Notes: generated by a model not told the origin, from the sequence alone. A stretch of DNA of 64,000 nucleotides from Armatimonadota bacterium (GCA_016235455.1 JACRKZ010000008.1:51584-115583); one strand, 5' to 3'; counted from the first letter of the stretch, positions 26,725-33,574 are shown. Numbers and translations: made by a program.

Positions 26725-27273
26725 CTACCCGTCGGCGGGCGTGGTCACCGCTGGCAGGGCGCTGGTCTCCATGCCTTCGCTCTCGGCCCAGTCGACGAGC
26801 TCCGCGAAGGCGGACTCGGCTGTAGCGCGAGGCAGATCGACCACCACACGCAGCCTGAACAGCGGGGATCCGCTCACCGGCGCGGGATAGACACTGGAGT
26901 CGAGGCGGACAATGTTGCCGCCGGCGCCGCGCAGATGGTCGGCCACCAGGTGCACCAGGCCCTCGCGGTCGGACGAGTGCAGCTCGAACGACAAGCGCGT
27001 GCAGTCAGCGCTGACCGTGGTCGGCGTGGTGGCGTGGATCTGGACGTGCAGCCCCGATGCCGTCTCCAGACCGGCCAAGTCGGCGGCGATGGCGGCGGTT
27101 GCCGCATCGCTGCCCGAGAGCAGCATCATGATGCCGAACATGCCGCCGAGCACCGACATGCGGCTGTCTTCAACATTGCCGCGCCGCTCAGCCACATAGG
27201 CCGACAGATCGGCCACGAGACCCGGCCGGTCGACGCCCGCCGCGGTCAACACCACGTACCTGCGCTCTTCCAT
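26725..27273 (-). CDS. Tandem ACT-domain protein (GcvR-like)
   Basis: GVDRPGLVA...GNVEDSRMSVLGG and SSDREGLVH...GNI ACT repeats. Confidence 0.88.
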   Translation of the reverse strand: MEERRYVVLTAAGVDRPGLVADLSAYVAERRGNVEDSRMSVLGGMFGIMMLLSGSDAATAAIAADLAGLETASGLHVQIHATTPTTVSADCTRLSFELHSSDREGLVHLVADHLRGAGGNIVRLDSSVYPAPVSGSPLFRLRVVVDLPRATAESAFAELVDWAESEGMETSALPAVTTPADG

Positions 27274-27276
27274 GGA

Positions 27277-29499: not shown

Positions 29500-30854
29500 C
29501 GTTCACCTCGGTCTGCTACCAACGTCCCTCGCAGATCATGCGTGTCCGCTTGATCGATCCGCACGTCCACCATCTCACCCGTCGCGATCGGCCACTCGCC
29601 GACGACGCAGTGTACGACACCGTCGATCTCAGGCGCGTCGCGATAGCTGCGGCCGACCAACTCGCCCTCGGCCACGCGCTCGACCAGCACGGTGAGCCGG
29701 CGCCCGACCAGCGCCTGCAGCCGCGCCGCGGAGACGCGGGCCTGGCGCTCAGCCAGTTCGGCCACGCGCGCTCGGGCCACGCCCGCGGGCACCTGGTGCG
29801 GCAGCGCGGCGGCCGGCGTGCCCGCTTCGGCCGAGTACGCGAAGAAGCCTACTCTATCCAGAGCCGCCTCGTCCAGGAAAGTTGCCAGTTCCTCGAACTC
29901 GGGCCGCCGCTCGCCGGGGAAACCAACGATGAACGTGCTGCGCAGGCAGATGTCGGGCATCGCCGCGCGGAGCTTGCCGATCAGCCGCAGGTACCCGTCG
30001 CGTCGGCCGCCACGGCCCATGCCCGCCAGCACGCTGTCCGCGGCGTGCTGCAGTGGCATGTCCAGGTACGGCAGCACGTTGGGTGTCTCGGCCATGGCGG
30101 CGATGAGCTTGTCGTCCACCTTGGTCGGATAGGCATACAGGATGCGCACCCAGTCCAGCCCGTCGACGCCGCCGAGGGCCCGCAGCAGGTCGGCCAGTTC
30201 GCGCGGGCCGCGGTCGCTGCCGAAGCCGGTGGTGTCTTCGCCGATCAGGTTGACTTCGCGCACGCCGTCAGCCACCAGCGCGCGGGCCTCGGCCACCACG
30301 CTGTCGATGCTGCGGCTGCGCAGGCTGCCGCGAATGGTGGGGATCAGGCAGAACGTGCAGTTGCAGTTGCAGCCTTCGCCGATCTTGACATAGGCCGTCC
30401 AAGGTGGCGTGGCACGCCGTCGCGGCAGGCTGTCCTGATAGGGCAGCGCCGGCGCCGAGACGAGCGTCGTCTGGACCTGGATACCGGCGCGCTGCTGCCG
30501 CACCAGTTCGGCCAGGTGCGGGAACTCCGAGACGCCGACCACCAGGTCGACCTCGGCGCACTTGTCGCGAATGAGCGCGGGCGTGAGTTGGGCCAGGCAG
30601 CCGGTCACCACCAGCGTGTCACACTGCCCCGAGCGCTTGAGCCGGGCGGCGGCGCGGATCTCGGCCACGGCCTCATCGCGCGCGGCCTGCAGGAAGCCGC
30701 ACGTGTTGACCACGATGACATTGGCCTGCTCGATGTCGGTGACCAACTGGTAGCCATCGGCACAGAGCACGCCGAGCATCTGCTCGGCATCGACCAGGTT
30801 CTTGGGGCAGCCCAGCGCGACCAGCGCCACGGTTCCGGCGGATGGGTCGGCCAC
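29496..30854 (-). CDS. rimO: Ribosomal protein S12 methylthiotransferase
   Basis: [14 protein letters not shown], [22 protein letters not shown] domain. Confidence 0.95.
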
Positions 30855-33574
30855 TAGGCAGCTCCCGCGGCGCTGGAGGCCACGCCGCCCAGCCGGCCCG
30901 AGATGCGCTCGGAGAGGCCTATCGACTGCTCGTCGGCCATCTTGGCGCCGGTGGCGCTGGAGACGCAGTAGAAGGCGTCCTCGGCGGCGTTGCGCCAGGT
31001 GGTGACCTTGGCCACGCGGATGTCCAGTTGCTCCGAGTGCAGCGCATCGGCCAGCCGGAACAGCAGGCCGCGCTCGTCGGCGGCGCGGATGGACACCACG
31101 GTGTACTGCCGACTGGAGTCGTTACTGACCTCCACGCTGTGCACCACGACATCGACCTGACTGCGGCCGCGCTTCTCGAGCAGTTCGGAGACCGTCTGCT
31201 CCGCGCGCACCACGCGCGACAGGTCCTCGGCCAGGCGGTCGCGCTTGCCCTGGGTCACGCTCTGGCCGAAGTCGTCGAGCCAGATGGTGCAGATGGCCTG
31301 GCGCCGGCCGTCATCGCCCAACGCCACGGCGACTTCCTGCTGACAGAGGTAGATGTCCAGGTTGTTGGCCGAGATGGTGCCGGCGATATCGCGCAGCAGG
31401 CCGGGCCGGTCGGTCGTGCACAGCGTCAGTTCGGTGTGCTTGGCGCCGAGCGCCTGGTAGAACTCGACCACCGGGTCCTCGCCGCCGTCGAGGCGTTCGA
31501 GGTAGGCGATGTGCTTGGCCACCAGGGCCGGCGGTGTGTTGACCGCATACCACACCGGCAGCCGCTCCAGATGCGTGCGCACGACCTCCGGGTCCATGTC
31601 CTTGAGGGCCGGGGCGCGGGTCAGGCGGCGGCGCGCGCGGCCCGCCTGGTCGGTATCGCTGGGATCGGCCATGGGCCGTTCCTGCACCCAGCGCGCGGCC
31701 TTGGCGAACAGCTCCATGAGCAGACGGCGGTCGGTATCCTTGAGCACGTTCTGACCCACGCTACGGGTGTCGGCGTAGGTCAGGCAGGTGAGCATATCCA
31801 GCGCGTCGAGCGGGTCGTTGGCCGGCAGCTTCTCCACGAACTCGTCGATCGTGTCCTGCATCTGCAGCGGCTTGAGTCGCGCGGTGCGCATCATGGTCAG
31901 GTGTTCCTTGATGAGGAACGAGACACGCTCGATCTGATGCTCCTGCAGGCCCAGCCGCTCGCCGGCGACGCGAGCTCGGGGGATGCCGGTGAAGGAGTGG
32001 TCGCCGGTGCCGTCGAGCTTGCCGACATCGTGGTAGAGCGCGGCGAACAGCAGCACCTCGGGCTCCTGCAGGTGCCCGATGGCATCGGACAGGATGCCTT
32101 CGTCCTCGCCGTTGGGCGCGTTCAGCACGCGCTGCAGTTCTTCGAGCACCTTGATCGAGTGCTCGCCGACCGTGTATTCGTGCGCCTGGTCGGTGGGCAG
32201 GAAGGGCAGCAGCGGCTCGAACTCGGGCAGCAGTCGCTCGAGCACGTGCAGCCGCAGCATATGGCGCAGGGCGCCGGCGACGTCGCGGTCGGGCTTGAGC
32301 ATGGCCAGGAAACGCTCGCCCACCGACTTGCGCCGCAGTACCGCCAGGTCGAGCAACTCGGCGCTGGCGGCGATGAGCCGTTCGAGGCGTAGCGACATGC
32401 CCAGCCCGTAGGTCTGCGCTTCGCCGAACAACGCCACCATGCGCTCAGGGTCGTCGCGGAAGATGGTGTCGTGGGTCGGCTCCAGCTTCCACCGTTCGAC
32501 ATAGCAGCCCTGGCGGAACTCCATGCGCTGCTCGCGGCACTCGGCGAGCAGTCGACGCGAGAAGTCGGCCAGCCGGCGCGCGCTGTGGTAGAGCCCGCGC
32601 ATGAGGTCCTCGGCCGCCGCGACGCGATGGTGGTCGCGGTAACCCAGCGCTTCGGCCATCTCCTGCTGGTACGACTTGTGCAGCACGTCGAGCTTCTGGC
32701 CGCGGCGCAGGTGCAGCCAGTTGCGTGCGCGCAGGATGAGTTCGAGCGCGTTGAGCGTCTCGACGCGCTCCTGCTCACCAATGACACCGCGCACCTGGAG
32801 CGCGCCGAGCACGTCCCAGTCGGCGATGCGGTAGACCACTTTGGCCACCCAGACCGCCGCGTGGAAGTCGCGCAGGCCGCCAGGGCCGCTCTTGAGGTTG
32901 GGCTCCACGGCAAACAGGCTCTGCCGGCGGTCGCGCCAGATGTCCAGGCGCTCCTCGGCGTTGAGGTGCAGGAACTCCACCGGCGCGATGGAGGTCATCA
33001 CGGCCTGCATGAAGTGCATGTACAGCGACATATCGCCCGCGACGAAGCGTGATTCCAGCAGTGCTGTGGCCGATTGATGGTCGATGTAGCCCAGATCGCT
33101 GAGCGGCCGGTAGGAGTGGGCCACATGCGGATGGCGCAGTGGCACGAGCACCTGGCCCAGCAGCGACAGCATCTCGCGGATGATCGCGTCGATGTGCGCA
33201 TGCTCCTCGACCATGGGCACGAAGACGAGATCGATGTCGGACCACGGCGCCAGATGCGCGCGGCCATAGCCGCCGACGGCGGCCACGCACACATCGGCGT
33301 CCATGGGCAGCGGGCCATCGCGCCGCTCCACCTCGGCCAGAGCCAACTGGAAGATCGCCGACAGGACCGTGTCGAAGACGGCGCTGTGCTGGGCACAGTA
33401 CTCACCGCCCGTGGGCTTCATCTCAAACTGCTTGGTCAGCGCCTCGCGCTCAGCATCGAGGAACTCCCGAATCCGCGTGACCACCGCGTCGCGCTGGGCT
33501 GGGTCCAGCCAGGAGTCGCCCAGTAAGGCCCGCAGCTTTTCCTTGTAGCGGGCTAGCACAGCCTGTGTCAGCAT
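30854..33574 (-). CDS. glnD: [Protein-PII] uridylyltransferase / uridylyl-removing enzyme
   Basis: AVGGYGR...SDIDL NTase, EPNLKSGPGGLRD, HEYTVGEH...HDVGK HD domain, two C-terminal ACT domains (DRPGL, DERGL). Confidence 0.93.
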   Translation of the reverse strand: MLTQAVLARYKEKLRALLGDSWLDPAQRDAVVTRIREFLDAEREALTKQFEMKPTGGEYCAQHSAVFDTVLSAIFQLALAEVERRDGPLPMDADVCVAAVGGYGRAHLAPWSDIDLVFVPMVEEHAHIDAIIREMLSLLGQVLVPLRHPHVAHSYRPLSDLGYIDHQSATALLESRFVAGDMSLYMHFMQAVMTSIAPVEFLHLNAEERLDIWRDRRQSLFAVEPNLKSGPGGLRDFHAAVWVAKVVYRIADWDVLGALQVRGVIGEQERVETLNALELILRARNWLHLRRGQKLDVLHKSYQQEMAEALGYRDHHRVAAAEDLMRGLYHSARRLADFSRRLLAECREQRMEFRQGCYVERWKLEPTHDTIFRDDPERMVALFGEAQTYGLGMSLRLERLIAASAELLDLAVLRRKSVGERFLAMLKPDRDVAGALRHMLRLHVLERLLPEFEPLLPFLPTDQAHEYTVGEHSIKVLEELQRVLNAPNGEDEGILSDAIGHLQEPEVLLFAALYHDVGKLDGTGDHSFTGIPRARVAGERLGLQEHQIERVSFLIKEHLTMMRTARLKPLQMQDTIDEFVEKLPANDPLDALDMLTCLTYADTRSVGQNVLKDTDRRLLMELFAKAARWVQERPMADPSDTDQAGRARRRLTRAPALKDMDPEVVRTHLERLPVWYAVNTPPALVAKHIAYLERLDGGEDPVVEFYQALGAKHTELTLCTTDRPGLLRDIAGTISANNLDIYLCQQEVAVALGDDGRRQAICTIWLDDFGQSVTQGKRDRLAEDLSRVVRAEQTVSELLEKRGRSQVDVVVHSVEVSNDSSRQYTVVSIRAADERGLLFRLADALHSEQLDIRVAKVTTWRNAAEDAFYCVSSATGAKMADEQSIGLSERISGRLGGVASSAAGAA

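Follow-up and report, generated by a model that had tools for sequence, protein, structure and literature searches.

A stressosome cassette behind glnD and rimO, with no linked output gene, in a family of Armatimonadota

Results

Gene content and layout of the locus

The stretch of DNA analyzed here, called the window, comprises 64,000 nucleotides (nt) of the genome of an Armatimonadota bacterium (GCA_016235455.1, JACRKZ010000008.1:51584-115583; this genome is referred to as G000), and coordinates are counted on the window unless another locus is named. Its minus strand carries seven densely packed genes in the order glnD-rimO-rsbS-rsbT-rsbX-rsbR-ACT, where a stressosome cassette of four genes stands between the glnD-rimO pair and a gene for a protein with two ACT domains (Table 1). 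The intergenic distances from glnD to the ACT gene are -1, -4, 4, -4, 15 and 3 nt. At the first junction TAGTG (30852-30856) is common to glnD and rimO, which overlap by 1 nt, and at the second ATGA (29496-29499) is common to rimO and rsbS. The rsbT/rsbX overlap consists of the 4 nt TTGA, the rsbX start that best fits the orthologues being the TTG at 28731, and gaps of 4, 15 and 3 nt separate rsbS from rsbT, rsbX from rsbR and rsbR from the ACT gene. A first-pass annotation made from the sequence had described seven near-seamless genes on one strand, and all its coordinates and junctions were reproduced on rechecking. No output gene was found within the seven-gene unit. The packing is operon-like, not unique: on the basis of 4870 gene calls from a home-made gene caller, G000 has seven runs of at least seven genes with gaps of at most 20 nt.

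Table 1. Genes and promoter-like sites of the seven-gene unit, listed in the direction of its minus strand; lengths in amino acids (aa).
Feature	Position	Strand	Description	Basis
Putative promoter upstream of glnD	33597..33625	-	sigma-70/sigma-A type	TTGACG, 17 nt, TAGAAT
glnD	30854..33574	-	PII uridylyltransferase/uridylyl-removing enzyme, 906 aa, single copy	Pfam/NCBIfam
rimO	29496..30854	-	ribosomal protein S12 methylthiotransferase, 452 aa	TIGR01125; UPF0004, radical SAM, TRAM
rsbS	29134..29499	-	STAS antagonist, 121 aa, Ser58 retained	STAS; 6JHK match
rsbT	28728..29129	-	switch kinase, 133 aa	HATPase_c_2
rsbX	28132..28731	-	single-domain PP2C feedback phosphatase, 199 aa	SpoIIE family
rsbR	27277..28116	-	RsbRD_N-type non-heme globin and STAS, 279 aa, after rsbX	STAS; structure model
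tandem-ACT gene	26725..27273	-	GcvR-like protein of 182 aa, placement variable among family loci	ACT_6
Next promoter-like site	26604..26632	-	sigma-A type, ahead of ABC transporter genes	TTGACA, 17 nt, TAACTT

Stressosome proteins

The phospho-serine motif VDSF is present in RsbS, and its serine (S58) was invariant in all six proteins aligned. The best solved relative of the protein was RsbS of B. subtilis (6JHK, E 1e-39). The ATP-binding residues of RsbT (N49, D78 and the glycine box) were invariant in 41 aligned proteins, and its nearest named proteins outside the family were mostly RsbTs of Bacillales with 58-64% identity, as judged from the best 120 of 7028 matches. Identity to the five other family genomes was 84-90% for RsbS, and within the family 76-84% for RsbT. 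In a background of 290 orthologue pairs the median was 57%, with 2% of the pairs reaching 84% and 8% reaching 76%; by conservation, RsbS ranks in the top 2% of that sample and RsbT in the top 8%. Strong selection acts on the module. In RsbX the aspartates D20, D37, D148 and D189, which we take to be the metal-binding residues, were invariant in ten of ten aligned proteins.

The predicted model of RsbR (predicted local distance difference test score, pLDDT, 84.9) found its top fold match, along its entire length, in the stressosome of Listeria (7B0U, E 2.9e-12). Relatives of its N-terminal domain carry Pfam RsbRD_N; no heme sensor was found, Pfam showing no protoglobin. The acceptor motifs of RsbR are LDSY (S170) and VDTN (T204), aligned with T175 and T209 of Listeria; these two motifs and VDSF of RsbS had all been reported in the first-pass annotation. 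It had also singled out the serine at the first RsbR site, a residue that proved ordinary: the site has serine in six and threonine in two of eight family proteins, and serine in all three canonical-order RsbRs aligned, while the second site has threonine in eight of eight. Serine at this position was accordingly rejected as a special feature. The module thus comprises a sensor RsbR with its STAS domain and two acceptor sites, a single-STAS RsbS with its serine, an intact RsbT and RsbX; the gene order rsbR-rsbS-rsbT is missing. It is best described as a predicted intact, Bacillus-like stressosome with one RsbR, and assembly of the particle is likewise a prediction.

Two Chloroflexota proteins whose genes follow rsbX gave 17-22 bits with the N-terminal domain of RsbR, compared with at most 10 bits for 12 canonical RsbRs, and many distant relatives of the domain are kinases. 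This raised the possibility that rsbR is a chimera derived from the earlier output gene; with scores this low and a domain so widely distributed, the idea stays a lead. The tree of the RsbR STAS domains had mostly weak branches and was not used to infer origin. Four relatives have one extra, unlinked RsbR paralogue (L035:1114-2007, L036:151-969, L037:7367-8206 and L038:7524-8351), and three of these four have aspartate at the first site, hence no acceptor, and lie near a gene for an M29 aminopeptidase or its homologue. No extra paralogue was found in G000.

Conservation in the family and the phylum

The family sample consisted of nine distinct loci, from six genomes of five genera and from three of ten metagenome matches; the other seven matches were distant RsbS sequences (28-38%) and were left out. 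The linkage glnD-rimO-rsbS was present in all nine loci, and the order rsbS-rsbT-rsbX-rsbR (S-T-X-R) in all eight that were long enough to show it. Frames are unbroken throughout the family loci.

At E 1e-20 or better, RsbS was found in 25 of 401 genomes of the phylum. Twenty stressosome loci from outside the family (19 RsbS genomes and G023) were compared, in fetched stretches of 4.7-20 kb. The gene rsbR directly precedes rsbS in all twenty, kinases mostly follow, and neither glnD, rimO nor the ACT gene was present within the fetched stretches of any of them. The S-T-X-R order noted in the first-pass annotation is therefore real and a trait of the family. In most canonical loci of the phylum (L085-L100), both RsbX and the output kinase begin with a fused RsbT-like domain. 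In a sample of 121 genomes, adjacency of glnD and rimO was confined to the family and to one genome of the sister family, G006. The contig of G006 terminates inside rimO, and neither RsbS nor RsbT was found in this genome (88% complete). A survey of gene neighbourhoods had been proposed to show whether the linkage occurs in a single genome; it is family-wide, and all the loci supporting it represent one lineage. Neither the S-T-X-R order nor the glnD-rimO linkage was found in the literature searched, a scope that leaves aside subscription papers and supplements, and nothing relevant was found there that pairs the stressosome with glnD, Armatimonadetes or an ACT domain, or rsbS and rsbT with rimO.

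Within the unit, the ACT gene varies the most. It follows rsbR directly in two of eight loci (G000 and L058) and lies two genes past rsbR in four (G002, G003, G005 and L067), whereas in G004 it is on another contig and in G001 (80% complete) it was not found. The first-pass annotation had drawn attention to the bracketing of the module by two ACT-bearing proteins in the window.

Two uncharacterized genes follow rsbR in relatives (L027:12173-15743, L029:12159-15636, L030:12032-15527, L028:5951-7795 and L067:12198-15881). The first, present in five loci, encodes about 620 aa with hydrophobic N-terminal stretches, and the second, present in four, a protein of about 545 aa that probably forms a coiled coil. 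Neither gave a family match above cut-off or a match in G000, and on these grounds they were rejected as a family-wide output. In L067 the unit is followed by genes resembling rpsB-tsf-pyrH-frr, named from their sequences (L067:16738-19978); in E. coli, glnD is located close to these genes.

Gene-order conservation in general was estimated from 40 unrelated regions of G002, G004 and G005 compared with G000. Tight same-strand pairs with orthologues were also adjacent in G000 in 76 of 91 cases and looser pairs in 18 of 49, so a conserved tight junction is the norm in the family. The conserved pairs from G004 and G005 (43) were annotated and the 33 from G002 were not. Mixed runs persist as well, such as response regulator-tRNA nucleotidyltransferase-unknown-trpS-scpA and rsfS-wecG, and background runs in G002 were as long as 13 and 15 genes.

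Promoters and extent of the unit

The putative promoter upstream of glnD was the sole consensus match in window 26300-34300. The strict pattern TTGAC-N16-18-TAnnnT was present upstream of glnD in eight of the nine family loci, and the ninth (G001) has a near match, TTGACG-17-GACAAT. The pattern is informative in G000, where 253 of 318 genome-wide matches lie at most 200 nt upstream of a gene. Internal promoters, which according to the first-pass annotation might split the unit, did not emerge: across the family loci no conserved one was found by the strict sigma-A pattern, promoters of other sigma factors lying outside this search, and the single internal match, inside rsbX of G001, is not conserved. 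Past the unit the same pattern recurs at the corresponding place in G000, G001, G005 and L067, and this promoter-like site likely marks the end of the unit. The genes behind it in G000, G001 and G005 form a GldA/F/G-like ABC transporter cluster (window 21043-26545, minus strand) with the promoter-like site as its own.

Two metatranscriptome runs contain 5-6% of the words, and contigs assembled from them span the rimO-rsbS, rsbS-rsbT, rsbT-rsbX and rsbX-rsbR junctions (16 of 25 pieces viewed; 90-99% alike, from a related strain); as DNA carry-over is uncontrolled and a contig over two genes is not the same as a single transcript, they were not used as proof of co-transcription. Upstream of glnD (L027, L030, L058, L059, L067 and window 33569-33585), its start is apparently a CTG behind a GGAG-type ribosome site in five of eight aligned loci; the remaining three carry ATG, GTG or TTG at this codon or shortly ahead of it. 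Such a weak start codon may keep the level of GlnD low.

GlnD, RimO and the tandem-ACT protein

GlnD contains the UR/UTase, HD and ACT domains, with a TIGR01693 score of 437.5 bits, below the cut-off of 519.4. Its nucleotidyltransferase motif GGYGR...SDID and the HD motifs were intact in nine of nine aligned proteins, and the family search revealed no extra domain. GlnD senses glutamine via its ACT domains and modifies PII at Tyr51; G000 encodes one PII, the usual substrate, with Tyr51 present. RimO is an ordinary equivalog (TIGR01125, 445.3 bits, above the cut-off of 356.95).

The tandem-ACT protein scored 58.8 bits against the GcvR equivalog, far below the cut-off of 267, and is not assigned to GcvR, which binds a GcvA-type regulator in a glycine-dependent manner. 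Its solved relatives are 2NYI (E 7e-15) and 1U8S. Within the family its identity was 44-49%, below the background median. Outside the family, orthologues (E 4e-46 or better) were present in 13 of 115 sampled genomes, nine of them without an RsbS match and four with RsbS on another contig, and their neighbour genes varied in the seven loci viewed. The predicted complex of RsbT, RsbR and the ACT protein (score 0.00, mark 0.32) counts neither for nor against an interaction. The ACT protein and GlnD are tied to the stressosome by gene position alone. G000 has a second, distant tandem-ACT paralogue (C47:25775-26281).

Candidate outputs elsewhere in the genome

The first-pass annotation had stated that the stressosome has no sigma-factor output, which is true of the locus but not of the genome. 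An operon rsbV-rsbW-sigma, unlinked to the stressosome, is present on contig C110 of G000, and an rsbV-rsbW-sigB-type operon was found in four of five relatives, that of the fifth being interrupted by the contig end. The sigma factor of C110 scored 231.6 bits against TIGR02980 (SigBFG; cut-off 234.35), below the SigB equivalog cut-off, and its orthologue in G004 passes at 241.7. All three members of the Bacillus-type SigB pathway that were looked for, RsbV, RsbW and a SigB-type sigma factor, are thus encoded. The operon (L040:6030-11664) continues into an AI-2E/YtvI-type membrane gene and an alaS-like gene, named from its sequence, and has a conserved sigma-A-type promoter-like site. Two types of sensor PP2C, conserved in the family, have GAF or membrane domains in place of RsbU_N; in G000 the GAF-PP2C is encoded on contig C85 and the membrane PP2C on contig C38. 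In addition, G000 encodes a second anti-sigma/anti-anti-sigma pair (contig C66), a lone anti-sigma factor and further HATPase and STAS proteins.

RsbU_N is described as the known receptor domain for RsbT in PMC12143880. Receptor probes applied to G000 (RsbU_N, RsbRD_N, Chloroflexota kinase N-termini and RsbT-like tips) recovered only the proteins of the operon itself and ordinary kinase ATPase domains. In the Chloroflexota with the closest RsbS outside the family (L053:1349-4819 and L052:9401-10099), the gene after rsbX opens with an RsbRD_N-type globin; it encodes a hybrid kinase in L053 and ends at the contig end in L052. This globin outscores canonical RsbRs against the N-terminal domain of the family RsbR, and may be an RsbT-receiving domain. 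A PocR-GAF histidine kinase is encoded just upstream of argC (window 36414-38216, minus strand), and the kinase-argC pair is upstream of glnD in G005 as well, not in the other family loci fetched. This kinase as a target of RsbT is possible but unsupported.

Discussion

The account favoured here, with moderate confidence, is that the cassette lies behind glnD-rimO, uses the promoter of that pair, and works like known stressosomes, its RsbT acting on a target encoded elsewhere, for which the SigB-type switch is the most plausible candidate. In an ancestor of the family a minimal stressosome would have become placed downstream of glnD-rimO, a pair of greater age, and would since have been transcribed from the housekeeping promoter of the pair, giving steady expression comparable to that of the rsb genes of B. 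subtilis under sigma-A. The RsbR and RsbS proteins would assemble and hold RsbT; under stress RsbR would be phosphorylated at S170 and T204 and RsbS at S58, RsbT would be released, and RsbX would reset the complex. The receiver of RsbT would be encoded elsewhere. As the end point, the conserved RsbV-RsbW-SigB-type switch is the most likely, and the signal would get there by way of a phosphatase or adaptor that has no classic RsbU_N domain. The genes glnD, rimO and ACT would be co-transcribed passengers with jobs of their own. Given how well gene order is generally conserved in the family, its inheritance accounts for these neighbours better than a functional link does.

Several observations weigh against this account. 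As to the output, the RsbU_N domain was found in none of six family genomes (G000 and five relatives, 72-95% complete), and the six-frame search of G000 revealed no second RsbR-type globin and no RsbU_N-like or RsbT-tipped receptor. Both PP2C types are present also in G006, in which RsbS and RsbT were not found, and 81 of the 121 genomes sampled in the phylum encode a SigB-type sigma factor; therefore neither depends on a stressosome. The conventional output that the first-pass annotation had envisaged elsewhere is in this way present as regards the SigB-type operon but not as regards RsbU_N. As to the neighbours, many of the 43 annotated conserved pairs belong to functionally related operons (kdp, nuo, fli, his, gro), and the six-gene run from glnD through rsbR exceeds every collinear background run in G004 and G005, none of which has more than five genes. 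The gap between rimO and rsbS is kept at -4 to +9 nt in all nine loci, and the ACT gene is at most two genes from rsbR in six of eight. The contig of G006 breaks off inside rimO, which makes the ancestral state behind rimO a presumption.

The neighbours could also be passengers while the released RsbT reaches some unlinked target outside the SigB pathway, phosphorylating a histidine kinase or else a STAS protein that is free, for example from the C66 pair. This is rather unlikely, although it would agree with the failure to find RsbU_N in the six genomes and with the additional HATPase and STAS proteins of G000. According to PMC9237108, most proteins downstream of RSTX modules are without RsbU_N, though encoded immediately downstream, and RsbT-dependent phosphorylation of a kinase has been proposed. 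The closest RsbS outside the family (Chloroflexota, 64-70%) likewise has a kinase-type gene after rsbX where the locus is complete. Against it, no kinase with an RsbT-like tip or an RsbRD_N-type N-terminus was found in G000, and co-occurrence with the cassette emerged for none of the candidates.

The first-pass annotation had suggested a possible nutrient-status stressosome with the ACT protein, GlnD or both as partner. In such a model one of the two would bind either RsbT or the stressosome, with nitrogen or amino-acid status setting stressosome activity, or else RsbT would control GlnD. The complete linkage of glnD, rimO and rsbS, the proximity of the ACT gene to rsbR in six of eight loci, the single promoter with no conserved internal one found and the failure to find a classic RsbT receptor are consistent with such coupling, which is nevertheless distinctly improbable. 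The ACT gene is unlinked in G004 and was not found in G001, nine of its 13 outside orthologues are in genomes without an RsbS match, and its product is less conserved in the family (44-49%) than the median protein. None of the 20 other phylum loci has glnD, rimO or the ACT gene in its fetched flanks, rimO separates glnD from rsbS, GlnD has no extra domain and its canonical substrate PII is present, and glnD-rimO is found in the sister family as well. The same low credence applies to a rewired variant, in which the classic RsbU receptor would have been lost and the ACT protein or the ACT domains of GlnD would bind the RsbR sensor or RsbT in a ligand-dependent way.

A link to translation, with the stressosome co-expressed with RimO and reading or affecting ribosome status, is very unlikely. 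The rimO-rsbS junction is kept in nine of nine loci, and in B. subtilis, according to PMC7522486, SigB is activated by stress only if L11 and Obg are present, and RsbR, RsbS and RsbT co-fractionate with Obg; yet rimO is absent from the flanks of the 20 other phylum stressosome loci, literature treating rsbS, rsbT and rimO together was not found, and RimO is an ordinary equivalog. That the cassette is a vestige which has lost its output can scarcely be credited: the unit has no output gene and a recognizable receptor was not found, but RsbS and RsbT are among the top 2% and 8% of proteins for conservation, the frames are intact in all family loci, and four of five relatives have extra unlinked RsbR paralogues.

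The interpretation given in the first-pass annotation is on the whole partly supported. The finding is a variant of a known system, real and family-wide, and the support for nitrogen sensing is weak. The family has a strongly conserved module with one RsbR and no linked output, and a SigB-type switch elsewhere. The signals perceived by stressosomes, and the signalling of RsbT where RsbU_N is missing, are described as open questions in PMC9237108 and PMC11821858, and the partner of RsbT, once found, would reveal a new way out of the stressosome complex. A link to the ACT protein or GlnD, if true, would be a defined small-molecule input with a direct tie to the PII system, and the first metabolite-defined input of such kind in the literature searched. 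The organisms are uncultured, which limits the payoff.

Comparison with known systems

The tandem-ACT protein resembles E. coli GcvR and the proteins of PDB 1U8S and 2NYI in its two ACT repeats and length of about 180 aa; it differs in scoring below the GcvR equivalog cut-off and in the varying neighbours of its orthologues.

With the stressosome of B. subtilis and Listeria the cassette shares RsbS and RsbT proteins that are closest to that type among solved and named proteins, and a non-heme-globin RsbR with a full-length fold match and the phospho-sites kept. Also shared are the sigma-A-type promoter, the B. subtilis rsb operon having a constitutive SigA promoter according to PMC7522486, the unlinked RsbR paralogues (in the relatives) and a SigB/F/G-type sigma factor with RsbV and RsbW in the genome. 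The RsbT residues R19, R23 and D92, given as RsbU contacts in PMC12143880, are kept here and also in the RsbTs of kinase-output operons, and are not diagnostic. The cassette differs in its S-T-X-R order with rsbX inside the module, in the glnD-rimO pair in front and in the unlinked rsbVW-sigB; moreover, the unit lacks rsbU, and RsbU_N was not found in the genome.

The minimal RSTX modules of the Vibrio type (V. vulnificus and other Armatimonadota loci) are alike in having four genes with rsbX directly after rsbT and, as reported in PMC9237108, no RsbU_N receptor. In the present family, by contrast, no heme sensor was found and no kinase or c-di-GMP enzyme follows the module; rsbR fills the slot after rsbX that is usually the place of the output gene, and the genome has a SigB-type switch.

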